From Clostridia bacterium (GTDB lineage Bacteria; Bacillota; Clostridia; Christensenellales; Aristaeellaceae): a stretch of 29,606 bases of DNA. Every line of letters starts with the position of its first letter. Within the stretch, counting starts at the first letter, position 1. The DNA lies in assembly GCA_045599485.1 (NCBI GenBank), contig JAZRWA010000115.1, positions 1-29,606 on the forward strand, given 5' to 3'. This document shows, in pieces, positions 374 to 26,241 of this stretch. The notes under the pieces are model-generated. The model was not told where the DNA came from and did no database searches. It saw only the letters and a program-made list of their open reading frames with translations. The translations under genes and the position numbers were made by a program.

Positions 374-402
374 TTGCATTTTTGAAACATGTGTGCTATG
401 AT
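374..402 (+). promoter_or_regulatory. Sigma-70-type promoter for the ABC transporter operon
   Basis: TTGCAT (374-379), 17-nt spacer, TATGAT (397-402). Located about 125 nt upstream of the ATPase start. Confidence 0.45.
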
Positions 403-479
403 ACACACAATTCCGGACGACAAAGGCACCGCCTTTTCCAACGGAAGCGCTCATTATCTTCATCATGTCGGCAACGGCG

Positions 480-510
480 CCGGTGTGTTGTATACACCGG
501 TTCTTTCTAT
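480..510 (+). promoter_or_regulatory. Terminator-like hairpin in the ABC operon leader (possible attenuator)
   Basis: Stem ccggtgt/acaccgg (480-500) followed by ttctttctat, ending just upstream of the RBS AAGGAGG (516-522). No riboswitch or T-box core recognised. Confidence 0.3.
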
Positions 511-529
511 CATACAAGGAGGGGTCCCT

Positions 530-1252
530 TTGATCAGCGTAAACGGTTTGCACAAAAGCTTCGGTAATCTGGAAGTGCTCAAGGGCATTGACCTGGAGGT
601 CAAAAAAGGAGAGAAGCTCGTCATCATCGGGCCCAGCGGCTCGGGCAAAAGCACGCTCATCCGCTGCATGAACGGTCTGGAGGAAGCCACCGACGGCACC
701 GTCAGCGTGGATGGCCATGAGATGACCAAAAAGGACCGTGCCAGGTTGAACCGTGAGTACTCCTCCATGGTGTTCCAGCAGTTCAACCTGTACCCGCATC
801 TGTCGGTGCTGGGCAACCTGACGCTGGCCCCCACCAAGCTCAAAAAGATGCCCAAAAAAGAAGCTGAAGAGCTGGCCATGGAAAACCTGGAGCGTGTCGG
901 TCTGGCGCACAAGGCGCACGTGCTGCCCACCACCCTGTCGGGCGGACAGCAGCAGCGCATCGCCATCGCCCGTGCCCTGACCATGAAAAACCCCATCATC
1001 TACTTTGATGAACCCACCAGCGCGCTCGACCCCGAAATGGTCAAGGAAGTACTGGACATCATGGTGGAGCTCGGCAAGGAAGACATCACCATGGTCACCG
1101 TCACGCACGAGATGGGCTTTGCCCGCGAGGTCGCCGACCGCGTCGTCTTCTGCGATGGCGGCAAGATCATCGAGGAAGGCACCCCCGAACATTTCTTTAC
1201 CAGCCCCAAGGAAGAGCGCACGCAGGCCTTTTTGAGCAAGATCCTGCGCTGA
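530..1252 (+). CDS. Polar amino-acid ABC transporter ATP-binding protein (GlnQ/ArtP-like, 240 aa)
   Basis: Walker [10 protein letters not shown], signature [15 protein letters not shown], Walker [14 protein letters not shown]-loop [11 protein letters not shown] start at 530 lies 7 nt after AAGGAGG. The longer ATG-389 ORF has no RBS and a non-homologous N-terminus. Stop TGA. Confidence 0.93.
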
Positions 1253-4571: not shown

Positions 4572-5530
4572 TATTTGTGTAAAACACGCAGCCTGCGCAG
4601 GCGGCTGAGCAGCCGCAGTACCTTGGGGCGTGCCACCCGGTAAATGCGATCATAACCACGGAAGGGAAGGATCAGTCCCGCCCGGCGGTTCTGCCGTTTC
4701 AGGCGCTCCCTGCAGGCGTCGATCAGCGTTTTCTCCGCCCCGATCGCTTCCATGGCACAGATACAGCCGATGCACACCACCGTATATTTTTGCCGAAATT
4801 TCCGCTGCACCCGCGCACCGGCATGCAGCCTGAGCCATTCGCCCTGCTCCTCCAGCGCATCCAGCGCGTCCAGCCGCCGCGCGCTCCAGGCGGAGTTGGT
4901 GATGCTGTCCGGCCGTACATAATACGCATAGATCGGCCGGTCGATCAGTGCCACCCTTTCATAGCCAAACAGCAGCTTCCAGAGGACAAACTCATCCTCA
5001 TACAACCGCCCCTCGGGAAAGCGCACCGTCGCAAAATCGCATGTGCGGAAGAGCTTGCCCCACGCGACCGTAAACACGGTCAAATGCCTGCAATACAGCT
5101 CCTCCGGCGTCACAGAACGGGCCTCAGACGGGGCAAAAGCTTCCATGTATATTTCCTCATCCGTCGTCACAAAACGCCCCACAGCGGCACCACAGCCTTC
5201 CTGTGCCATGGCCTGCACCAGCAGCTCCAGATAGCGGGAATGCACCCAGTCATCACTGTCTACAAAGGTGATGAATTCACAGCCCCGCCGCAGCGCTTCC
5301 TCAATGCCGGTGTTTCTGGCCGCCGACAGTCCCCTGTTGGGCTGATGCATCGCCTGCACCCTCGGGTCAGCCGCGGCAGCGGCATCGCACAGGAAGGGGC
5401 TGCTGTCCGTACTTCCATCATCCACCAGCAGCAGCACAAAATCCCGGAAGGATTGGCGCAAAATGCTGTCCACGCACCGCTTCAGATACTTTTCCGTGTT
5501 GTATACCGGCACGATCACCGCGACCGACAT
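4571..5530 (-). CDS. Family 2 glycosyltransferase (319 aa)
   Basis: N-terminal GT-A signature VIVPVYNTEKYLKRCVDSILRQSF...LLLVDDGSTDSS and a DSDD motif. RBS GGGAGG lies 9 nt upstream. Confidence 0.85.
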   Translation of the reverse strand: MSVAVIVPVYNTEKYLKRCVDSILRQSFRDFVLLLVDDGSTDSSPFLCDAAAAADPRVQAMHQPNRGLSAARNTGIEEALRRGCEFITFVDSDDWVHSRYLELLVQAMAQEGCGAAVGRFVTTDEEIYMEAFAPSEARSVTPEELYCRHLTVFTVAWGKLFRTCDFATVRFPEGRLYEDEFVLWKLLFGYERVALIDRPIYAYYVRPDSITNSAWSARRLDALDALEEQGEWLRLHAGARVQRKFRQKYTVVCIGCICAMEAIGAEKTLIDACRERLKRQNRRAGLILPFRGYDRIYRVARPKVLRLLSRLRRLRVLHK

Positions 5531-5974: not shown

Positions 5975-6730
5975 TTATTCGGCGTCAAAGTTCACGATGG
6001 CAGCAAAATCCGCCGCCTTCAGGGAAGCGCCGCCGATGAGGCCGCCGTCGATTTCGGGCTGCGCCATCAGGCCCTTGACGTTGGAGGGCTTCATGCTGCC
6101 GCCGTACTGGATGCGCACCTTGTCGGCCACGCGCTTGCCATACTGACGGGCAATGGCGGCACGGATGACACCGATGGTCTCGTTGGCCTGCTCATCGGTC
6201 GCGGTCTTGCCGGTGCCGATGGCCCACACGGGCTCGTAGGCGATAACGACCTTCTTGACCTCTTCGGCGTCCATGCCGACCAGGGCGGTCAGGGTCTGGT
6301 ATTCCACCAGCGTATTGGTGTAGCCGCCTTCACGCTGCGCCAGGTTTTCGCCCACGCAGATGATGGGGATGATGCCGTTGCGGATGGCCGCGACCGCGCG
6401 CTTGTTGACGCACTCATCGGTCTCGCCAAAGTACTGACGGCGCTCGCTGTGGCCCAGCACGACATAGTCGATCTTGCAGGCCTTGAGCATGGCGGCGGAA
6501 AGCTCGCCGGTGTAGGCGCCGCTCTCGGCCCAGTGCATGTTCTGCACGCCCACCTTGATCTTGCTGCCGCGCACAGCCTTGACCGCCTCAGCGGCATCCA
6601 GAGCGGGCACGCAGACGACCACGGTGTTCTTGCTGTCCTTCACAAGGGGCTTCAGCTCTTCGATCAGGGCCTTGGTCTCCTCGGGGGTCTTGTTCATTTT
6701 CCAGTTACCGGCAATGATGGGAGTACGCAT
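5975..6730 (-). CDS. tpiA: Triose-phosphate isomerase
   Basis: [45 protein letters not shown] at 6730 gives the canonical [12 protein letters not shown]-terminus. The track ORF starts at an upstream GTG (6742) that abuts the RBS. Confidence 0.95.
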
Positions 6731-10947: not shown

Positions 10948-13900
10948 TTACAGGATCACGGGATTCTTTTCCGCTTCGGGAGCGGGAGCTTCCTCGGCAG
11001 GAGCGTAAGCGTTGTTGATGGCTTCCGCCACGGCATTGCTGGTGCAGGTCGCACCGGCGATCATTTCCACTTCGGTCACAGGCAGGCTCTTGCCCACATA
11101 GCTCTGGGCAAAGGCTTCGTCCAGCGCCTTGGCGCCATAGCCTTCGGTCTCGCAGAAATCGGCATCGCCGATCTTGAGGGCGGCAATGGCGTCACCGGAA
11201 ACGGTCACTTCCACGACCACGGGACCCATGAAGCCGCGGGCGCAGCCGGTCAGCACAACGGGTTCCTCGGTGGTGGCAGGAACGACTTCTTCGGTCACAG
11301 CAGGAGCCGCTTCCTCGGTCGCTTCGGGAGCAGTCACAGCGGCTTCTTCCTTGGCTTCCACAGCGGGAATGATCACGGGATTCTTTTCAGCCTCGGGAGC
11401 GGCGGCTTCCTCGGCAGGAGCATAAGCGTTGTTGATGGCGGCGGCAACGGCCTTGCTGGTGCAGGTGGCACCGGCAATGATCTCCACATCGGCGTCCGTC
11501 AGGGGCAGCGCCTTGCCCACATAGCTCTGGGCATAGGCCTCATCCAGCGCTTTGGCGCCGTAGCCTTCGGTCTCGCAGAAGGCATCGCTGCCGATCTTCA
11601 GAGCGGTAATGGCATCGTTGGCAACGGTCACTTCAACGGCGACCTCACCCATGAAGCCACGGGCGCAGCCGTTCAGCACGACAGCTTCCTCGGTGGTGGC
11701 GGGAACGACTTCTTCGGTCACAGCAGGGGCCGCTTCCTCGGTCGCTTCGGGAGCAGTCACAGCGGTTTCTTCCTTGGCTTCCACAGCGGGGATGATGACG
11801 GGATTCTTTTCGGCCTCGGGAGCAGCGGCTTCCTCGGCGGGAGCATAAGCATTGTTGATGGCGGCGGCGACAGCCTTGCTGGTGCAGGTGGCACCGGCGA
11901 TGATCTCCACATCGGCATCCGTCAGAGGCAGGCTCTTACCCACATAGCTCTGGGCATAGGCTTCATCCAGCGCCTTGGCGCCGTAGCCTTCGGTCTCCTT
12001 GAATTCGGCGTTGCCGATCTTCAGAGCGGTAATGGCATCGTTGGCAACAGTCACTTCAACGGCGACCTCACCCATGAAGCCGCGGGCGCAGCCGTTCAGC
12101 ACAGCGGCTTCGGCGGCAGCAGGGGCATCAGCCACGGGAGCTTCGGGAGCGGTCACAGGGGCTTCTTCCTTGGCTTCCACAGCGGGGATGATCACGGGAT
12201 TCTTTTCAGCCTCGGGAGCGGCGGCTTCCTCGGCAGGAGCATAAGCATTGTTGATGGCAGCGGCGACGGCCTTGCTGGTGCAGGTGGCACCGGCAATGAT
12301 CTCCACATCGGCATCCGTCAGGGGCAGGCTCTTGCCCACATAGCTCTGGGCATAGGCTTCATCCAGCGCCTTGGCGCCATAGCCTTCGGTCTCGCAGAAG
12401 GCATCGTTGCCGATCTTGAGGGCGGCAATGGCATCGTTGGCGACGGTCACTTCAACGGCGACTTCACCCATGAAGCCGCGGGCGGAGCCGTTCAGCACGG
12501 CGGCGGCGGGAGCGGCTTCCTTCTCGCCCACGGCGGGAATGATGACGGGGTTCTTTTCAGCCTCGGGAGCGGCGGCTTCCTCGGCGGGAGCATAAGCGTT
12601 GTTGATGGCGGCGGCGACAGCCTTGCTGGTGCAGGTGGCACCGGCAATGATCTCCACATCCGCATCGGTCAGGGGCAGGGTCTTGCCGATATAGCGCTGG
12701 GCATAAGCTTCATCCAGCACCTTGGCACCGCAGCCTTCGATCTCCTTGAATTCGTCGTTGCCGATCTTCAGGGCGGTGATGGCATTATCTTCGATGGTCA
12801 CTTCGACGGCGACCTCGCCCATGAAGCCGCGGGCAGCGCCCTTGACCGTGCCGGAGGCAGCGGCAGGAGCGGTAGTGGCTTCGGGAGCTTCGGGAGCGGC
12901 AGCGCTCATGGAGGCAAACGCCTCGTTGATGGCTTCCACAACGGCCTTGCTGGTGAAGGTGGCGCCGGAGATCATATCGACATCGCCCTCATTCAGAGGC
13001 AGAGCCTTGCCGATGAACTGACGCTGATAACCATCCGCCAGAGCCTTCTGGCCGAAGCCTTCGGTCTCCCTGAAGTTTTCATCACCGATCTTGATGGCCT
13101 CGATGGTGTTGTCGGCGGTCACGGCGATTTCAACGGCCACGGGGCCGGCGAAGCCCTGGGCGGAAGCGGCCACACGGGTACCCGCGGCGCTTTCGATATC
13201 GGGCAGTTCTTCGTTCATCACGGCGAAGGCGGCATTGATGGCTTCCACAACCGCCTTGCTGGTGAAGGTGGCGCCGGTAATGGCTTCCACATCGCCATCG
13301 TTCAGGGGCAGAGCCTTGCCGATGAACTGACGCTGGTAATCATCCTCAAGGGCCTTCAGGCCGAAGCCGGCGGTCTCATTGAAGTTGGCGTCACCGATCT
13401 TGATGGCTTCGATGGTGTTGTCCTCGGTCACGGCGATCTCCACCTTGACGGGGCCGGCGAAGCCCTGAGCGGAGGCAGAGGTACGCTCGCCCTTGGCATT
13501 CTCGATATCGGGCAGCGCAGCGGCGGCGGCACTGGCCTGCGCGGCATACGCTTCGGGGTCGGTCACATACAGCAGGATCTGGTTGACGGCCTTGTTGATG
13601 GCGGTACTGGTGATGGTGGCGCCGGACAGGGCATCCACTTCCTCGCCCAGAGCCGGCTGACCGGTCAGGCCGATGTACTGCGCCAGGTAGTCCGCACCGA
13701 TGCGGCCGCCGTAGTTGGGCGTTTCGGAGGAAACGTCCGCAACGATCTGGCCGATGAAGAATTCATCATTCACCAGCAGCTCCACGCGCACATCGCCGCC
13801 GAAGCCCGCCAGGCTGATGGCGTACCAGCCGTCGCCCAGCTCTTCCACATCGACCTGCGCGGTCTCGATGATGAAGCCGGCAACCTCACTCAGCGTGCCC

Positions 13901-14400
13901 ATGGCGTCATTGACACCGCGGATAACGGCCTTGGAAGTGATGGTGGCGGCCGTCAGGGCGTCGATCTCACCGCCGTCCTTGGACAGGGAGACAGGCGCGG
14001 TCTTGCCGGCAAACTGATCCTGGAAGGAAGCTTCCTTGGCACGAGCGCCCAGGCCGGCAGTTTCGGAGAAGTTGGCACCGCCCACGCTGATACCGGTGAT
14101 GGTACCATCGGGCTCCACACCCACGGTGATCTCGATCTCGCCGCCGAAGCCGTTGGTGGGCACGGTAGCGGTATAGCCGATCACCTCGCCGGCAGCATTC
14201 TTGGCGACATAAACATTGTTTTCCTCATCGTACTCAAAGCTCGTGGCCTCAGGCAGCAGCGCCTTGCGGGCCTCTTCCGCCTTGGCGGCGGTGTTGGCAT
14301 CGATCTGGGGCTTGGTCATGTTGTAGGTAGCAGCCAGCAGACCGGCGGCGATCACACAGATCAGGGTCAGCAGCAGCCAGGCGGGAATACGCTTCTTCAT
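10948..14400 (-). CDS. Membrane-anchored extracytosolic protein with nine tandem FMN_bind (RnfG/NqrC-type) flavinylation domains (1150 aa)
   Basis: RnfG-like N-terminus with one TM helix (MKKRIPAWLLLTLICVIAAGLLAATYNMTKP). Nine [ST/A][GA]AT-x-TS motifs, with the predicted flavinyl-Thr at residues 153, 262, 378, 481, 589, 706, 839, 979 and 1118. Pro/Ala/Glu-rich linkers. GGAG RBS. Immediately downstream of apbE in the same orientation. Confidence 0.9.
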   Translation of the reverse strand: MKKRIPAWLLLTLICVIAAGLLAATYNMTKPQIDANTAAKAEEARKALLPEATSFEYDEENNVYVAKNAAGEVIGYTATVPTNGFGGEIEITVGVEPDGTITGISVGGANFSETAGLGARAKEASFQDQFAGKTAPVSLSKDGGEIDALTAATITSKAVIRGVNDAMGTLSEVAGFIIETAQVDVEELGDGWYAISLAGFGGDVRVELLVNDEFFIGQIVADVSSETPNYGGRIGADYLAQYIGLTGQPALGEEVDALSGATITSTAINKAVNQILLYVTDPEAYAAQASAAAAALPDIENAKGERTSASAQGFAGPVKVEIAVTEDNTIEAIKIGDANFNETAGFGLKALEDDYQRQFIGKALPLNDGDVEAITGATFTSKAVVEAINAAFAVMNEELPDIESAAGTRVAASAQGFAGPVAVEIAVTADNTIEAIKIGDENFRETEGFGQKALADGYQRQFIGKALPLNEGDVDMISGATFTSKAVVEAINEAFASMSAAAPEAPEATTAPAAASGTVKGAARGFMGEVAVEVTIEDNAITALKIGNDEFKEIEGCGAKVLDEAYAQRYIGKTLPLTDADVEIIAGATCTSKAVAAAINNAYAPAEEAAAPEAEKNPVIIPAVGEKEAAPAAAVLNGSARGFMGEVAVEVTVANDAIAALKIGNDAFCETEGYGAKALDEAYAQSYVGKSLPLTDADVEIIAGATCTSKAVAAAINNAYAPAEEAAAPEAEKNPVIIPAVEAKEEAPVTAPEAPVADAPAAAEAAVLNGCARGFMGEVAVEVTVANDAITALKIGNAEFKETEGYGAKALDEAYAQSYVGKSLPLTDADVEIIAGATCTSKAVAAAINNAYAPAEEAAAPEAEKNPVIIPAVEAKEETAVTAPEATEEAAPAVTEEVVPATTEEAVVLNGCARGFMGEVAVEVTVANDAITALKIGSDAFCETEGYGAKALDEAYAQSYVGKALPLTDADVEIIAGATCTSKAVAAAINNAYAPAEEAAAPEAEKNPVIIPAVEAKEEAAVTAPEATEEAAPAVTEEVVPATTEEPVVLTGCARGFMGPVVVEVTVSGDAIAALKIGDADFCETEGYGAKALDEAFAQSYVGKSLPVTEVEMIAGATCTSNAVAEAINNAYAPAEEAPAPEAEKNPVIL
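10954..12840 (-). repeat. In-frame tandem repeat array: five near-identical FMN-domain-plus-linker units (417, 423, 396, 351 nt, plus a partial fifth)
   Basis: The marker gat(c/g)acggg(a/g)ttcttttc... recurs at 10954, 11371, 11794, 12190 and 12541. All unit lengths are multiples of 3. Encoded domains 7 and 8 differ at about 5 of about 110 residues. Confidence 0.9.
12910..13512 (-). repeat. Older in-frame tandem duplication: two 309-nt units encoding FMN domains 3 and 4
   Basis: gatggcttccacaac(g/c)gccttgctggtgaaggtggcgccgg recurs at 12928 and 13237 (103-aa period). The proteins PDIENAKGERTSASAQGFAGPV... and PDIESAAGTRVAASAQGFAGPV... align throughout. Confidence 0.8.
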
Positions 14401-14449: not shown

Positions 14450-15487
14450 TCATTGGGTAAAGGGCAGATACGTTTTGAAGCCGGTCGTCCAGAAGACGTT
14501 GCCGTCCTCCTCCACCCACATGGCTTCGGCGTCGTATTTTTCAAGCAGGGGCAGCGCGTCCTCCGCGCTCATCAGGTACAGCGCGGTGGAAAGGGCATCG
14601 CCGATGCCGCTGTCCGCGCAGATGATGGTCACGGCCTTGTACCGGCGGGCCGGCATCAGGGTATCGGGATCGATAATGTGGTGGTAGTTGACACCATCCA
14701 CGGTGTAAAAGCGCTGATAGTCACCGCTGGTCACGACGGAACCCTCCGTCATGCTCAGGGTCGCCAGGTAGCTGTTGCTGTAGGGATCAAAGGGATCGGT
14801 CACCCCCACGGTCCATTTGGCGCCGTCCGGCTTGGCCCCATGCACCAGCACGTTGCCGCCCACACTGATCAGATACCCCTCCGGAAAATCCCTGCAGGAT
14901 AGCTCTGCGGCATAGCCCTTGGCCAGGGCACCCACATCCAGCCTTGCTTCGGGATCGGTCAGCCGCACGGTGCACGCCTCGGGATCGATCTGAAGCAGAT
15001 CCATGCCCGTATGCCGTGCAGCCTCAGCCAGCACCTCCGCGTCCGGCAGATACGCCTTGTCCGGATGCGCGATGCCGTATTCACGTGCCTCATGCCACAC
15101 ATTCAGCACCGCGCCCAGCGTGACGTCGACGCGTCCCGCGGTCAGCACCGCCACCTCGCGGGCAAAGAGCAGAAAATCGATCATCTCTTTGCTGACGCTG
15201 ACCGGCTCACCGCCCGCGGCATCGTTGACGGTCTTGAGGTTGTTGACCCCCTCATAATCGTTGTAGATGTCAAACAGGGCGTTATAGGTCCGCATCGATT
15301 GCGTAAACCGCTCCACCTCTTCATCAAAGGCGGCACGTGATTCGGCATAGCCCATCACATAGGTCACGGTGTCAAACAGATCGAGCAGCGTGGTCTGAAA
15401 GCGCACGGGTGCTCCGCCGGCTCCGGCGGGGACAGCTCCCATCAGCAGAATCAGCGCCGTCATCAGGCACAATATCTTCCGCTTCAT
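14450..15487 (-). CDS. apbE: ApbE-family FAD:protein FMN transferase, secreted or membrane-anchored (345 aa)
   Basis: N-terminal signal/anchor MKRKILCLMTALILLMGAVPAGA. ApbE motifs ISVGGNVLVHG, TSGDYQRFY, HHIIDPDT. ATG 15487 follows AAGGAA. The track ORF extends to an upstream GTG with no support. Confidence 0.88.
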   Translation of the reverse strand: MKRKILCLMTALILLMGAVPAGAGGAPVRFQTTLLDLFDTVTYVMGYAESRAAFDEEVERFTQSMRTYNALFDIYNDYEGVNNLKTVNDAAGGEPVSVSKEMIDFLLFAREVAVLTAGRVDVTLGAVLNVWHEAREYGIAHPDKAYLPDAEVLAEAARHTGMDLLQIDPEACTVRLTDPEARLDVGALAKGYAAELSCRDFPEGYLISVGGNVLVHGAKPDGAKWTVGVTDPFDPYSNSYLATLSMTEGSVVTSGDYQRFYTVDGVNYHHIIDPDTLMPARRYKAVTIICADSGIGDALSTALYLMSAEDALPLLEKYDAEAMWVEEDGNVFWTTGFKTYLPFTQ

Positions 15488-15598
15488 TGGCTTTATTTCC
15501 TTTTCAAAATGGTTATTTCTTTGGGTTTTCGATCCGAAAGAAACCGGCTTCACCCGCGCATGGGTATAAAAAGCCCTTGTTTCCCGGTTCGGTATTTC

Positions 15599-15819: not shown

Positions 15820-16728
15820 ATGAGCGTACTGGACAGACTGATCCGCAGCGACAAGCTCAGCGAGCTGCTGGAGGCGGCCAAAAACGGCGCTGCCTCGGCC
15901 TATGAGGTCAGCGAGGGCGCGCGCGCAGCGCTGGCCGCGGCCGTAACGCTGGCGTCCGGCCGGCAGGTGATCGCCGTCTGCCCTTCCGAAAGGGAAGGCG
16001 CCGCGCTGGCCGAGGACGCCCGTCAGCTGGGGGTCAATGCCGCCGCGCTGCCCGCCCGTGAAAGGCAGTTTGCCCGTTCGGTCGCCAGCCGGGATGCCAG
16101 CTGGCAGCGTGTCAGCATGCTGGGCGCCCTGCGTCGCGGCGAAACACGCCTTTTGTTTATCTCCGCCGACATGCTTTTGTGGAAGACCACGCCCCCGCAG
16201 AAGTGGGAAATGATGAGTGCCCCCCTCGAGACCGACGCCGAGATGGACCCCAAGGCCCTCCTCCGGCATCTGATCTCCGCCGGCTACGAGCGTGTGGAAA
16301 TGGTGGAAGGCCGCGGCCAGTGCGCCCTGCGCGGCGCCATTCTGGACGTCTTTCCGCCCGACAGCCTCAACGCCCTGCGCATTGAGTTTTTTGACAATAC
16401 CATCGATTCCATCCGTTCCTTTGACTGCATCACCCAGCGTTCGGTGGAGCATCTGCATTCCGTGTGCATCAGCCCCGCCGCCGAATACGTATTGACCCCG
16501 CCCGAAAAGGCCGAAGCGGGCGCACGCATGCACTCGCTGCTGGAAAGCGCGCAGGAGCGCTTCCGCGGCACGGCAGATGGCCTTTCCGCCCTTCTGGCCG
16601 ATGCCGAAACGCTTCAAAACGGCGGTGCCCTGGCCCAGATGGACCTGTGGGCCGGCGTGCTGATGCATCAGACCGCGCCCTTGACCGCCTGGCCGCAGCA
16701 GCCCATCGTGCTGATCTTTTCGCCGTAG
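15820..16728 (+). CDS. mfd: Transcription-repair coupling factor Mfd, N-terminal segment, ending at an in-frame TAG (16726-16728)
   Basis: ATG 15820 after GGAGGGG. UvrB-homology-type N-terminal region. Same reading frame as the 16798..19284 ORF. Confidence 0.85.
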   Translation: MSVLDRLIRSDKLSELLEAAKNGAASAYEVSEGARAALAAAVTLASGRQVIAVCPSEREGAALAEDARQLGVNAAALPARERQFARSVASRDASWQRVSMLGALRRGETRLLFISADMLLWKTTPPQKWEMMSAPLETDAEMDPKALLRHLISAGYERVEMVEGRGQCALRGAILDVFPPDSLNALRIEFFDNTIDSIRSFDCITQRSVEHLHSVCISPAAEYVLTPPEKAEAGARMHSLLESAQERFRGTADGLSALLADAETLQNGGALAQMDLWAGVLMHQTAPLTAWPQQPIVLIFSP

Positions 16729-16797
16729 CACTGTCTGGAGCGCCTGCGGGATGCCCGCAATGGCTTTGAAAACGAGCTGGCGCAGGCCATCGAACGC

Positions 16798-19284
16798 ATG
16801 GAGGCCGTACCCGAGCAGCAGGATGCCCTTTTGACGGAGGCGGAAGCCCTGCAAATGGTCAACTGTCACACCGTCATCACCGTGCAGGATCTGATGCGCC
16901 CCGCCGAGGGCTTCCGTCAGGGGCACTTTGTGCAATTGCCCACGCTGGACGCCCCTTCCTACCGCACCAATGTACGCGACCTGGCCGAGGACCTCAAGAC
17001 CTGGAGCCGTGAAAAGGCCGATGTCTTCCTCTACACAGGCGGCGAGGCGCGCACCGGGCGACTGAAGGAAGCGCTGCAGGGGGTGGAATGGCATGAGGAT
17101 CCCACCGTGCGCTTTGACCCCGTCACGCTGCACCGCGGCTTCCTCCTCGGCTTCTGCGGACTGTATGTCATCAGCGATGCCGACATCTACGGCACAGTGC
17201 ACAAAAAGAGTGCCGTCAAAAGCAGCCTTTCCCAGCGCATCGGGGCCTTTACCGACCTCAAAGAGGGCGATTTTGTCGTTCACGAGGCGCATGGCGTGGG
17301 CATCTATCAGGGTGTACAGCGTGTGCAGAGCGAGGGCGCATGGCGTGATTATCTGGTCATCCAGTACCGCGGCACCGACCGGCTGTATGTGCCCACCGAT
17401 CAGTTTGACCGTGTGCAGAAATACATCGGCTCGCAGGAAACGCCGCCGCCCCTCAACTCCCTGTCCGGCGGCGAGTGGGAAAAGCAAAAGAGCCGTGTCA
17501 AGGCAGGGCTCAAAAAGCTGGCCTTCAATCTGGTCAAGCTCTATGCCGAGCGTGAAAAAACGCCCGGTCATGCCTTCTCGCCCGACAACACCTGGACGGG
17601 ACAGTTTTCCGATGCCTTCCCTTACGAATTGACCGATGATCAGGCGCGTGCCGTTGAGGATATCCGCCGTGACATGGAGGCCCCTCGCAACATGGACCGC
17701 CTGCTGTGCGGTGATGTGGGCTACGGCAAGACCGAGGTGGCCATGCGTGCCGCCTTCAAGGCGGTCTGCGACAGCAAGCAGGTGGCGCTGCTGGCGCCCA
17801 CCACCATTCTGGCACAGCAGCATTATTACACCTGTGTCAAACGCTTCAAGGATTTTCCCGTCACCATTGAGGTGCTGAGCCGCTTCCGCAGCCCCAAGGC
17901 GCAAAAGGAAGCGCTCATGAAGGCGGCCTCCGGCAAAGCCGATATCGTCATCGGCACGCACCGCCTGCTCAGCAAGGACGTGACCTTCAAGGATCTCGGC
18001 CTGCTCATCGTTGATGAGGAGCAGCGCTTTGGTGTGCAGCACAAGGAGCAGATCAAAAACTACAAAAAAACGGTGGATGTGCTCACCATGTCCGCCACAC
18101 CCATCCCCCGCACCCTGCACATGAGCATGGTGGGCGTGCGCGACATGAGCGTGCTGGAAACGCCGCCCGAGGACCGCGTCCCCGTACAGACCTACGTCAT
18201 CGACTACAACGAAAGCATCATCCGCGATGCCATCCTGCGTGAGATGGGCCGCGGCGGTCAGGTCTACTTCCTATACAACAGGGTCAGCGATATCGATCGT
18301 TTTGCGGGGCGCCTGCGCCAGCTGGTGCCGCAGGCACGCATCGTCATCGGGCACGGTCAGATGGCGGAACGCGATCTTGAGGATGTGATGCTGGATTTCT
18401 ACAGCGGCAAATACGATGTGCTGCTGTGCTCCACCATCATTGAAAACGGTCTGGATGTGCCCAACGCCAACACCATGATCGTCTATGATGCCGACCGTTT
18501 CGGTCTGAGCCAGCTGTATCAGCTGCGCGGGCGTGTGGGACGCTCCAACCGTGTGGCGTATGCCTATTTCACCGTGCGCCCCGGTGCCTCCATCAGCGAG
18601 ACCGCCGAAAAACGCCTGTCCGCCATCCGGGAGTTCACGCAGTTCGGTGCCGGCTTCCGCATCGCCATGCGCGATCTTGAGATCCGCGGCGCGGGCGACA
18701 TCTTCGGAGCCGAGCAGAGCGGTCACATCGCGGTCGTCGGCTATGACATGTACTGCCGTCTGATCGAGGAAGCCGTGCGTGAGGAGCAGGGCATTTCCAC
18801 CGAGCGTGAGCAGCTGGAGCCCCGCATCGACCTGCGCATCAACGCCTTCCTGCCCGAAAAATACATCAAAAGCGGCAGCCAGCGTGTTGAGGTCTACAAG
18901 CGCATTGCCGCCCTGCGCACCGAGGAGGAGCAGAGCGACATCGTGGACGAGCTGATCGACCGTTACGGCGATGTGCCCGATTCCGTCATGCGGCTGCTGG
19001 ACACCGCCCTTTTGCGCGCGCTGTGCGTGTATTTCGGCGTGCAGCTGGTGCAGCGGCAAAACAATCAGCTGTTCTTCCGCTTTGATATGCGCTACATTCC
19101 CGATGTGGCACAGATGAACCTCGCCATGGGGCCCAAGTGCCGCCTGCGCTTTTCACCCTCGCGCATTCCGGGGCTGATCCTGCCCCTCACCGCCAAGGAC
19201 AGCGATGAGGACGGTCTCGCCCTCGCCTGCCGCGAGCTGGGGCTCATCCGCGCCGCGATGGAAAAAGCCGACGAGGGGAAGTAA
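16798..19284 (+). CDS. mfd: Transcription-repair coupling factor Mfd, C-terminal segment (frame is open from 16729; first ATG at 16798)
   Basis: RNAP-interaction (CarD-like) motif [19 protein letters not shown]. Helicase motifs [35 protein letters not shown]. With the N-terminal segment it totals 1154 codons, a normal Mfd length. Confidence 0.92.
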
Positions 19285-19330: not shown

Positions 19331-19526
19331 GCCCTCCGCAAAAAAGCAGTTTTATGTTTGTAACTTTGCACCCTCGCTTCGGTGAAGGGAAATGAGCATA
19401 CCACGATTTCGGTTTTTCTCCCATGGCCTTTCATGGTCCTGTATGACCCCATACAAAAAGCACCCTTGCGCTGATGAGATTCTACCTTCAGCATCACAAG
19501 GGTGCTGCTCCTTTTAATTAAAATTC

Positions 19527-23335: not shown

Positions 23336-25519
23336 TCAGACCGGCAGCTCGGTCAGCCGCAGCGCCAGCGCGGTGTAGCGGCGGGCAATGTGGTTGTTAT
23401 TCACCATCGCGGCCACACAGTCCTCCCGCCCGGCCAGCACCACCAGCTCCCGCGCGCGGGTCAGGGCGGTATAGAACAGGTTGCGGGTCAAAAGCATCGG
23501 CGGACCGCCGGTGCAGGGCATTACCACGCAGGTAAACTCGCTGCCCTGGCTCTTGTGCACCGACAGGCAATAAGCCAATTCCAGCTCCTCGGTCAGCGTG
23601 GCGTCATAATCCGCCCGCCGTCCGTCGTCAAACAGCACGGTCAGCTCCTTTTCCTCCGGATCGACGCTCTCGATCACACCCATATCGCCGTTGAACACGC
23701 CCTTGCCCTCGCCGGCGCCGTACCATTCCAGCTGATAGTTGTTGTGGATATGCATCACCTTGTCGCCTTCGCGAAAGAGCCTTTCCCCCAGCTGCAGCTC
23801 CCTTTTTTGGCGGGAGGGCGGGTTCAGCGCCTGCTGCAGAAGGACATTGAGCTGATTGACGCCGCACGGTCCCTTTCGCTGGGGTGACAAGACCTGAATG
23901 ACCCTCGCGGGCTCCCCGGTCTTGAGGTAGGCAGGCAGGCGCTTCAGGCACAACTCGACCACACGCCGTGCCGTTTCCTCGGGATATGCCACGCGCTCCA
24001 TAAAAAAGTTGCCGTCCCGACGGTTGACCTGCGGCATCTCACCGCGGTTGATAGCATGGGCGTTGCGCACGATCAGGCTGCTTTCGGCCTGACGGAAGAT
24101 CTCTGTCAGGCGCACCGAGGGGATCACACCGCTTTTGAGCATATCTCCCAGCACATTGCCCGCGCCCACCGAGGGCAGCTGGTCGGCGTCTCCCACCATG
24201 ATCAGCTTGGCGCCCTGCGGCAGCGCGCGCAAAAAAGCGCGCATCAGATACACATCCACCATGGACATCTCGTCCACAATGAGGCAGCTGCACTCCAGCG
24301 GCTCCTCTTCATCGTGCCCGAACTGACCGTCCTCGCCGCCGTAGCCCAGCAGGCGGTGCAGCGTCTGCGCCTCCTTGCCGGTGGCCTCGCTCATACGCTT
24401 GGCGGCACGCCCCGTGGGCGCCGCCAGCAGCACGCCGTCACTGTCCAGCAGGGACAAAATGCAATTGATAATGGTCGTTTTGCCCGTGCCCGGGCCGCCC
24501 GTGATGACCAGCAGACCGCTTTCCACCGCGGTGACGATGGCCTTTTTCTGCGTATCGGAAAACTGCATGCGGTGCTGCCGCTCATAATCGGCAATACGGC
24601 GGTCGGCATCCTTTACCCGGGTGCGCACGCCCCCCGCCCGCAGCTCCAGCAGACGGCGGGCAATGTCCGTTTCGGCATGCCACAGCTGCGGCAAAAAGAC
24701 CGCCGCCGTGCCGTCGATCAGATAGCTGCGCAGCTTGCGGCTCAGCAGCAGCTGCGTCAGGTGCTGCTCCAGCCGGGTGCCCTCCACCCGCAGCAGCTCG
24801 CCGGCCGTTTTCAGCAGCTCCGCCTGCGGCAGATAGGTATGCCCCGCCGAGACCGAGGCATCCTGCAGCGCGTAGATCAGCCCCGCGCTGAGCCGCTCCG
24901 GGCTGTCGGGCTCCATGCCCATGGCCAGGGCGATGCGGTCCGCCGTCAGAAAGCCGATGCCCGCCACATCCTCCACCAGCCGGTAGGGATTGGCACGCAC
25001 AATGTCCGCCGCCTGCGCGCCATAGGTACGGGCAATGCGCATGGCCATGGAAGCCGATACGCCGTAGCCCTGCAAAAAGACCATCACCTGCCGTGTGGCA
25101 TACTGCTCCTGAAAGGAGGCGGCGATGCGGGCGGCGCGCTTGGCGCCGATGCCCGTCACCTCAATGAGCCGCTCGGGGTGCTCGCTCATCACATCCAGCG
25201 TTTTCAGCCCAAACTCCTGCACGATCAGGCGCGCGGTGGAAGGTCCCACGCCGCTGATGAGCCCCGAGCCCAGGTATTTTTCAATGCCCGTCAGCGTGGA
25301 GGGCGCTTCCACCTCGCACGACGCGGCCTTGAACTGCCTGCCGTACTGCGGATGCACCATCCACTCTCCCTGAAAGACTGCCTTTTCGCCGTCCGCCAGC
25401 TCAGGCAGCACACCGATGACCGTCACCTCGCTGCGGTCGGCACGCACCGTCAGCACGGTGTAGCCGTTATCGGGATTCCGGAAGGTGACAGCGCGCACCG
25501 TTCCCTTCAGTTCTTCCAT
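23336..25519 (-). CDS. recD2: RecD2-type SF1B ATP-dependent DNA helicase (727 aa)
   Basis: ITGGPGTGKTT, APTGRAAKRM, LIVDEMSMVD, VGDADQLPSVGAGN, SVHKSQGSEF. ATG 25519 follows AAGGGAGG and overlaps a TGA (TGATG) that closes the read-through frame of the upstream gene. Confidence 0.9.
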   Translation of the reverse strand: MEELKGTVRAVTFRNPDNGYTVLTVRADRSEVTVIGVLPELADGEKAVFQGEWMVHPQYGRQFKAASCEVEAPSTLTGIEKYLGSGLISGVGPSTARLIVQEFGLKTLDVMSEHPERLIEVTGIGAKRAARIAASFQEQYATRQVMVFLQGYGVSASMAMRIARTYGAQAADIVRANPYRLVEDVAGIGFLTADRIALAMGMEPDSPERLSAGLIYALQDASVSAGHTYLPQAELLKTAGELLRVEGTRLEQHLTQLLLSRKLRSYLIDGTAAVFLPQLWHAETDIARRLLELRAGGVRTRVKDADRRIADYERQHRMQFSDTQKKAIVTAVESGLLVITGGPGTGKTTIINCILSLLDSDGVLLAAPTGRAAKRMSEATGKEAQTLHRLLGYGGEDGQFGHDEEEPLECSCLIVDEMSMVDVYLMRAFLRALPQGAKLIMVGDADQLPSVGAGNVLGDMLKSGVIPSVRLTEIFRQAESSLIVRNAHAINRGEMPQVNRRDGNFFMERVAYPEETARRVVELCLKRLPAYLKTGEPARVIQVLSPQRKGPCGVNQLNVLLQQALNPPSRQKRELQLGERLFREGDKVMHIHNNYQLEWYGAGEGKGVFNGDMGVIESVDPEEKELTVLFDDGRRADYDATLTEELELAYCLSVHKSQGSEFTCVVMPCTGGPPMLLTRNLFYTALTRARELVVLAGREDCVAAMVNNNHIARRYTALALRLTELPV

Positions 25520-25635
25520 CAGCGCCCGCCTCCCTTCTCCCACAGTCCGTAGCGGCTGCTGTCCTTGAGCGCCGTCAGCAAATACTCTCTCAATTGCGGA
25601 TACCGCCCGGACAGCTCGTCCAGCAGCTCCTTCAT
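25519..25635 (-). other. Open in-frame continuation (38 codons) of the ttcA-like gene beyond its TAG: MKELLDELSGRYPQLREYLLTALKDSSRYGLWEKGGGR*
   Basis: Hand translation of the minus strand. The codon after TAG (25638-25636) is in the same frame. No stop occurs until TGA 25521-25519, which overlaps the recD2 ATG. Confidence 0.6.
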
Positions 25636-26241
25636 CTATTGCCGGGTGGTATGCCCGTCCGCCGGGCAGGGATTCTTGATGACCGGCAGGCCGAACTTGC
25701 GGGCAATGTGGATCACGTCCTTTTCGGGCGTATAGATCATGGGGCGGATGACGTCGATCCTGGGGTCATCCATGTGCGTCACCGGCGCAAAGGTGTACAG
25801 CCTGGCCTCGTGCAGCAGGCTCATGAGCAGCGTTTCCTCCGCGTCTTCCCGGTGATGCCCCAGCGCCAGCTTGGTGCAGTGAAGCTCCGCCGCCATGCGC
25901 AGCAGCGCCCCACGGCGAATGCGCGCGCACAGGGCGCAGGGGTGCGTTTCTCTGCGCACCTCAAACAGCTGATAAAACAGGTCGCTTTCCTGCACGTGAT
26001 ATTCCACGCCCAACTCCTTACACAACTGTTTGACAGGTGTTGTATCAAATGGCTCGCCGGGCTTCAGGGTAATGCCCACCACCTCAAAGGGCTTTGCGGC
26101 AAAACGCGAATAGACCGCCAGCGCGCGCAGCAGCACCAGGCTGTCCTTGCCGCCCGATACGCCCACCGCCACACGGTCCCCCCGATGGATCATGTCAAAA
26201 TCCGTATCCGCCCTGCGGATATCTCCAAGCAGCCGCTTCAT
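25636..26241 (-). CDS. TtcA-like PP-loop ATP pyrophosphatase (tRNA thiolation family), as delimited by TAG under the standard code (201 aa; 240 aa if TAG is decoded)
   Basis: PP-loop VGVSGGKDS, Cys ligands PCALCARIRRG and NPCPADG. ATG 26241 lies 5 nt after GGAGGGGG. It is the only ORF in the window ending in TAG. Confidence 0.82.
   Translation of the reverse strand: MKRLLGDIRRADTDFDMIHRGDRVAVGVSGGKDSLVLLRALAVYSRFAAKPFEVVGITLKPGEPFDTTPVKQLCKELGVEYHVQESDLFYQLFEVRRETHPCALCARIRRGALLRMAAELHCTKLALGHHREDAEETLLMSLLHEARLYTFAPVTHMDDPRIDVIRPMIYTPEKDVIHIARKFGLPVIKNPCPADGHTTRQ

Follow-up and report, generated by a model that had tools for sequence, protein, structure and literature searches.

How does a gene end whose reading frame continues, as apparent coding sequence, beyond its stop codon? 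This question is raised by a ttcA-like gene of an uncultured Clostridia bacterium, which encodes a PP-loop ATPase and overlaps the start of recD2 on contig JAZRWA010000115.1 (assembly GCA_045599485.1). We analysed this stretch of DNA at its full length of 29,606 nucleotides, here called the window, together with related loci from public genomes and metagenomes. The comparison indicates that TAG is very likely translated in a clade of uncultured gut Clostridia, most probably as glutamate (Glu), and that the TAG in the ttcA-like gene would be one of several Glu codons written in this way.

The ttcA-like gene starts with an ATG at position 26241 on the minus strand and comprises, when the TAG is read through, 240 codons and a TGA stop (25519..26241). 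The TAG is codon 202 (25636..25638, minus strand, proposed to encode Glu). A first-pass annotation of the window had placed it directly after ...NPCPADGHTTRQ, and translation bore out this position, as well as the in-frame tail behind it. This tail (25519..25635, minus strand) consists of an ATG at 25635-25633 and 37 further codons, MKELLDELSGRYPQLREYLLTALKDSSRYGLWEKGGGR, and reaches a TGA at 25521-25519. The TGA forms a TGATG stop/start overlap with recD2 (25517..25521, minus strand), in which its A is also the A of the recD2 ATG (25519-25517). The same overlap is kept in a sister locus (L001) from a horse-faeces metagenome-assembled genome (MAG). Inside the tail, the Shine-Dalgarno-like sequence AAGGGAGG (25529..25536, minus strand) lies 9 nt upstream of the recD2 ATG and may be the working ribosome-binding site of this gene. 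Translation of ttcA and recD2 is thus probably coupled via the TGATG overlap. All coordinates of the first-pass annotation were found to be correct.

It had also been proposed that the TAG is not the true end of translation and that the real product is the one of 240 amino acids, said to be of the usual size for the family. Both the homology past the TAG and the coding-type conservation of the tail support this. Lengths of 237-242 aa are seen in the closest homologues, and almost all of the matches listed fall between 236 and 260 aa. The read-through product matches the Pfam PP-loop family (PF01171) with an E-value of 3.8e-17 and 63 bits, compared to a gathering threshold of 27, and carries the motif SGGxDS of PP-loop ATPases as SGGKDS at residues 29-34. 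The NCBIfam TtcA profile (NF007972) covers residues 2-228, but the score of 190.5 bits stays below the equivalog cut-off of 272, and the protein has 240 aa where the profile has 295 positions. NCBI has named the sister protein MCQ2454336.1 TtcA; the window protein is filed here as TtcA-like. Among the structures in the PDB, TtuA/NcsA-type [4Fe-4S] tRNA thiolases (chains including 6scy and 5mko) align up to residue 218. The cysteines of these enzymes are found as C102 and C105 (CxxC, residues 102-105) and the distal C192, which is part of NPCP, and all three are invariant in the homologue alignment. Besides SGGKDS and the three cysteines, the TtcA/TtuA-type thiolases share with our protein a helical C-terminal segment after the last Cys. 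Both the PP-loop and the three Cys ligands are encoded before the TAG.

The alignment showed that homology continues across and beyond the TAG column. The tail is covered by all of the 19 close homologues, and in an alignment of 120 homologues the residue at position 202 is Glu in 113, Asp in six and Pro in one. Since the homologues are full length through this column, orthologues do not end at the TAG but run on through the tail, which is the normal C-terminus of the family.

The same TAG was found in independent assemblies. The 90% protein cluster of the window TtcA holds three distinct sequences of 201 aa, one each from NCBI (the contig of the window itself), Logan and the ENA. The Logan sequence, from locus L061 (Logan run SRR28408226), reads CGGCAATAGATGAAG like the window and has TAG at codon 202. 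The ttcA gene of L061 is 89.5% identical to that of the window, and the residues of the tail are identical at 37 of 38 positions. Between these two tails, both behind a TAG, we counted six synonymous changes and one nonsynonymous change, a ratio of nonsynonymous to synonymous substitution rates (dN/dS) of 0.04, which indicates that the tail is under selection at the protein level with the TAG in place. In the comparison of the window with L001, dN/dS was 0.09 for the N-terminal part of TtcA and 0.06 for the tail. Overall, dN/dS values of 0.04-0.07 together with homology to the family C-terminus uphold the earlier suggestion that the tail is coding sequence. In five sister loci (L001 and L054-L057), codon 202 is GAA. 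All this suggests that ttcA is most probably one intact gene of 240 codons in which codon 202 is a Glu codon written TAG.

A side observation concerns the synonymous divergence (dS) of the tail. Between the TAG-bearing lineages it is 0.27 (window 25519-25635 against L061 1607-1723), compared to 0.51 in the rest of the gene, while it is about 1.0-1.2 between the TAG lineages and the GAA-bearing sisters. This looks like a recombining haplotype in which the TAG allele is passed on with its tail.

For the other genes we compared the window codon by codon with collinear sister loci of about 91% DNA identity. These come from the horse-faeces MAG GCA_024404275.1 (L001, L058 and L059), from ENA ERZ27247129 (L056 and L062) and from Logan runs (L054, L055, L057, L060 and L061). 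Across about 35 distinct clade genes, nine in-frame TAG sites were found, namely ttcA-202, mfd-15, mfd-303, mfd-734, recD2-514, ABC ATPase-70, glycosyltransferase-227, one in a histidine kinase gene and ArsR-80. Two of the nine are located in the window. The first-pass annotation had regarded the ttcA-like gene as the only one in the window that appears to use TAG as a stop. What stands of this is that none of the 22 window genes ends at a TAG; the uniqueness does not, as the mfd gene also holds an in-frame TAG.

The mfd gene, encoding the transcription-repair coupling factor (15820..19284, plus strand), has 1154 codons and is broken only by one TAG, as judged from its translation and homologues. 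This TAG is codon 303 (16726..16728, plus strand) in the context ...PIVLIFSP*HCLERL..., and it is also TAG in L058; a sense codon at this site was not found among close relatives. Of 48 homologues, 21 have Glu and 17 have Asp in this column. In a cluster of N-terminal Mfd fragments, the lengths of all 12 members fit an end at codon 303, and the three that were read all end in ...FSP. Two other mfd codons are GAG in the window and TAG in sisters. Codon 15 (15862..15864, plus strand) is TAG in L058. Codon 734 (18019..18021, plus strand), which encodes the second Glu of the DEEQ helicase motif II, is TAG in L056 and L058, and 12 of 13 family members have Glu there. Two further Mfd fragments of 407 aa fit a TAG at codon 734; the one that was read ends in ...IIDE. 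Although the Mfd of L058 contains three TAGs, it is 96.8% identical to the window Mfd at the amino acid level over 1150 residues, and dN/dS between the two is 0.11, 0.019 and 0.033 in the segments after the successive TAGs. Judged by these values, the mfd gene of the window appears to be intact, with its TAG read as sense.

An extra stop at mfd codon 241 was considered and dropped, as the 240-aa fragments run from codon 63 to the TAG at codon 303. In the public annotation of GCA_024404275.1, Mfd is split into three proteins, MCQ2454178-80 (hypothetical protein, DEAD/DEAH box helicase). In addition, several Mfd homologues from other ENA assemblies (P0123, P0128, P0130 and P0135) are shortened by apparent frameshifts and have garbled C-termini. 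This is a break of a different kind from the clean TAGs of the clade and is probably related to assembly quality.

The gene downstream of ttcA, encoding a RecD2-like helicase of 727 aa (23336..25519, minus strand), has GAG as codon 514 in the window (23978..23980, minus strand), and TAG in three sister assemblies (L055, L056 and L057). The family column is Glu in 89 and Asp in 20 of 119 homologues, and dN/dS was 0.035 upstream of the TAG codon and 0.025 downstream. Codon 227 of a glycosyltransferase gene (4850..4852, minus strand) and codon 70 of an ABC-transporter ATPase gene (ORF numbering; 596..598, plus strand) are likewise GAG in the window, and both are TAG in L059 and L062. In the glycosyltransferase gene dN/dS is 0.20 after the TAG and 0.25 before it, and in the ABC ATPase gene it is 0.022 after the TAG. 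Downstream of the TAGs overall, dN/dS thus ranges from 0.02 to 0.2, and no frameshifts were found in the TAG-interrupted genes of the clade. The longest open reading frame (ORF) of the ABC ATPase (389-1252, plus strand) begins with about 46 codons that lack conservation and are interrupted by a TAA in the sister genome. Translation probably starts behind this N-terminal extension.

Two of the nine sites are in genes that have no orthologue in the window. In L062, a TAG splits a histidine kinase gene (1164-2021) into a membrane segment of 61 aa and a kinase domain of 207 aa. The other, codon 80 of an ArsR gene, was found in L056. Structures of ArsR/SmtB proteins align for 14 residues beyond this TAG. 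Among the pairwise alignments shown, a single one has a residue opposite the TAG, which is a Glu of Lmo1102. The ArsR gene belongs to a 2.2-kb insert of lower GC content (L056 9835-11997), which also encodes an ArsP permease and a thioredoxin-like protein and separates the DUF3783 gene from mfd. There is no such insert in the window (positions 19461 to 19265). Because the in-frame TAG falls on a Glu position, this island, which was probably acquired, probably also follows the variant code.

Finding the same TAG in independent assemblies and nine in-frame TAG sites across the clade is more than would be expected by chance. In the genomes of about 91% identity, a partner sense codon is seen at six of the sites, and it is GAG at five and GAA at one. 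GAG makes up 25% of the window codons that are one substitution away from TAG. The chance of finding six GAG partners under random nonsense mutation is therefore about 0.254^6 = 3e-4, a figure that treats all six partner codons as GAG, though one is GAA. Taken together, the alternation with Glu codons, the Glu/Asp columns, the persistence of the TAGs and the selection downstream of them show, at the level of sequence comparison, that this clade uses TAG as if it were synonymous with GAG and GAA. This is a cause that the first-pass annotation did not see: TAG appears to replace Glu codons across the genome of the clade, and the read-through would not be specific to the ttcA-like gene.

Among the other explanations, the one that survives best, though it is improbable, is that TAG is read as a residue other than Glu, such as Gln (as in supE-type suppression or in recoded phages) or pyrrolysine, or that it is read as sense only in part. 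Gln is the commonest reassigned meaning of UAG elsewhere (PMC8629427), and UAG is read as pyrrolysine in some bacteria and genome-wide in archaea (10.64898/2026.05.24.727570). Moreover, the scarcity of TAG, which accounts for two of the 8712 codons of the window, is compatible with inefficient or ambiguous decoding. However, between close relatives TAG was exchanged with CAG, AAG or TAC/TAT at none of the sites, but only with GAG or GAA. The columns are Glu or Asp, including that of the DEEQ helicase motif and the TtcA column with 94% Glu, and pyrrolysine at ordinary Glu sites of housekeeping proteins is without precedent. Partial decoding, on the other hand, would be a variant of the proposed reading of TAG as Glu.

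Less probable still is that ttcA is a truncated gene or a fresh pseudogene whose tail has not yet decayed, its TAG having come about by recent nonsense mutation of a GAG or by an error of base calling or assembly. Such a mutation takes one substitution, and the nearest sister genomes carry GAA at this codon. In addition, TtcA is dispensable in model bacteria, and the truncated product of 201 aa would retain the PP-loop and the three Cys ligands. The explanation is nevertheless largely refuted by L061, which was obtained in another sequencing run and has the TAG in a gene that is 10% diverged, and there is a third distinct variant of 201 aa. Moreover, the tail has accumulated six synonymous changes against one nonsynonymous change between TAG-bearing lineages. 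Eight other Glu-compatible in-frame TAGs are found in neighbouring intact genes of the clade, and there are no frameshifts anywhere. A sequencing artefact was also rejected: the contexts of the TAG sites were inspected and have no motif in common, and the TAGs recur in independent runs.

Equally improbable is a split gene, in which translation would stop at the TAG and restart at the adjacent ATG (TAGATG) to give an enzyme of 201 aa and a peptide of 38 aa that possibly associate: an adjacent stop and start can allow termination-reinitiation and the ATG is directly 3′ of the TAG, but this ATG is the conserved Met or Ile of the family at position 203 and no Shine-Dalgarno sequence precedes it (25635-25633), while the other TAGs are followed by non-start codons (CAC, CAG, GAA, GAG, GCC) or by a GTG without further signs of a start and show similar conservation downstream, a pattern that a one-gene mechanism does not fit.

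Some observations weigh against a complete reassignment of TAG to Glu. The lack of TAG stops is weak evidence alone, as in the relatives TAG accounts for about 6% of the stops, and at this usage zero TAG stops in about 32 genes has a probability of about 0.14. Compared to 650 GAA and GAG codons in the window, TAG is so rare that decoding could be inefficient or ambiguous instead. Scans of the window and of eight clade loci found no tRNA gene, and hence no tRNA with a CUA anticodon. Finally, none of the four proteins Mfd, TtcA, RecD2 and glycosyltransferase is known to be essential, and a loss tolerated gene by gene would be possible. The selection data speak against such a tolerated loss.

The stop codons of the window and its relatives bear on how far the change extends. 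Of the 22 window genes, 13 have TGA and nine have TAA as their stop codon, and the ORFs of the sister loci, with TAG read as sense, also all end in TGA or TAA. More distant relatives (L002-L008), whose TtcA is 73-76% identical to that of the window, have GAA or GAG at the ttcA-202 site. In these loci TAG was found only a few codons from ORF ends, where it is an ordinary stop, and never inside real genes. Since relatives at this distance keep the standard code, the change of TAG is recent and narrow. Scans of genomes and metagenomes with TtcA returned L001 as the nearest species representative and many relatives of 73-76% identity; a contig of the same species was not among the results, and in the relatives from these scans mfd was not located within 10 kb of ttcA. 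Exact matches to four window products (the 201-aa TtcA, RecD2, the 38-aa tail and SerA) were absent from the contig index, whereas the protein clusters do contain the proteins of the window. A TAA at 5975-5977, examined as a candidate in-frame stop, turned out to terminate tpiA in the usual way; the yhbY-like sequence behind it is a gene of its own.

How could Glu be inserted at UAG? The reading of TAG as Glu would call for a tRNA with a CUA anticodon that is charged with Glu. The simplest origin of such a tRNA would be a duplicate of tRNA-Glu(CUC) with a change of C36 to A, that is, of one base. Most Firmicutes have no glutaminyl-tRNA synthetase, and their glutamyl-tRNA synthetase (GluRS) takes both tRNA-Glu and tRNA-Gln. 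Such a non-discriminating GluRS tolerates different bases at position 36 and could allow charging of the CUA-anticodon tRNA. Release factor 1 (RF1) would have been lost or would no longer read UAG, leaving release factor 2 (RF2) to terminate at UAA and UGA. The scarcity of TAG stops in the lineage (about 6% in the relatives) would have made this change cheap, and new TAG codons would then arise from GAG by single G-to-T changes. The proposal predicts Glu-bearing peptides that span the TAG sites, such as ...VAYPEETAR of RecD2 and ...DLGLLIIDEEQR of Mfd.

The stop codon reassignments known from bacteria all concern UGA, which has been reassigned to Gly or Trp (Shulgina and Eddy, PMC8629427), and a paper on Eggerthellaceae from 2026 states the same (PMC13462651). 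The gTranslate preprint (2026) considers for prokaryotes only tables 4, 11 and 25, in addition to the genome-wide reading of UAG as pyrrolysine in archaea (10.64898/2026.05.24.727570). UAG is read as Glu by tRNA-Glu(CUA) in eukaryotic nuclear codes (PMC12153298). A natural bacterial UAG-to-Glu code was not reported in the full-text literature that we searched, in which subscription journals are covered incompletely. We consider it likely that this clade represents the first case of a natural bacterial lineage that has reassigned UAG to a standard amino acid (Glu), with loss of RF1 and gain of a tRNA-Glu(CUA). The reassignment would be at an early stage: the group is roughly the size of a genus, TAG makes up well under 1% of its Glu codons, and sisters at about 75% protein identity use the standard code.

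The bacterial UGA codes (tables 4 and 25) comprise UGA-Trp in Mycoplasmatales, several endosymbionts and Eggerthellaceae MAGs, and UGA-Gly in Gracilibacteria and Absconditabacteria. In common with the code proposed here, a stop codon becomes sense genome-wide, which is recognised by in-frame stops at conserved columns of housekeeping genes, and the loss of a release factor and the gain of a tRNA with a mutated anticodon are expected (PMC13462651, PMC8629427). They differ in that UGA is read as Trp or Gly and RF2 is lost, whereas here UAG would be read as Glu and the loss of RF1 is predicted. In addition, these lineages mostly have reduced genomes of low GC content, whereas our clade has about 59% GC and an ordinary housekeeping content. 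The eukaryotic UAR-to-Glu codes of peritrich ciliates (table 30) and of Blastocrithidia nonstop (table 31) share UAG as Glu. They are nuclear codes that involve eRF1, and UAA is reassigned too, whereas here TAA is a normal stop, used by nine of the 22 window genes.

Amber-recoded gut phages (crAss-like, Lak and other phages) also read UAG as sense, and their genes look fragmented under table 11. These phages have their own suppressor tRNAs and usually read TAG as Gln, sometimes as Ser, in contrast to the chromosomal housekeeping genes and the Glu partner codons found here. Amber recoding in phages is also often limited to late genes. In pyrrolysine decoding, known from methanogenic archaea and some bacteria, a dedicated tRNA with a CUA anticodon reads UAG and TAG stops are depleted; in our clade such a tRNA is a prediction. 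Pyrrolysine decoding uses pylTSBCD and inserts the 22nd amino acid mainly in methylamine methyltransferases, whereas the TAGs described here are at ordinary Glu columns.

Apart from these genes, the window encodes on the minus strand (10948-14400) a secreted or membrane protein of 1150 aa with many near-identical repeats of the FMN_bind type and linkers rich in Ala, Glu and Pro (...PAEEAAAPEAEKNPVIIPAV...). It is the sole member of its 90% cluster, and its gene adjoins that of an ApbE flavin transferase (14450-15490).

If TAG is read as Glu in this clade, the public annotations of its genomes under table 11 are wrong, as they split Mfd and cut short TtcA, RecD2, the ABC ATPase and the glycosyltransferase. 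Tools that rely on coding density probably miss such a reassignment because TAG is rare. A natural, RF1-independent amber suppressor pair for Glu could also be of interest to genetic-code engineers. Above all, a clade of free-living, GC-rich gut Clostridia that reads UAG as Glu would represent a new bacterial genetic code. As relatives with the standard code are close by, the order in which RF1 was lost and the tRNA was gained would be testable. The same holds for the question of whether the change began with codon capture or with an ambiguous intermediate, and for the acceptance of a CUA anticodon by GluRS.

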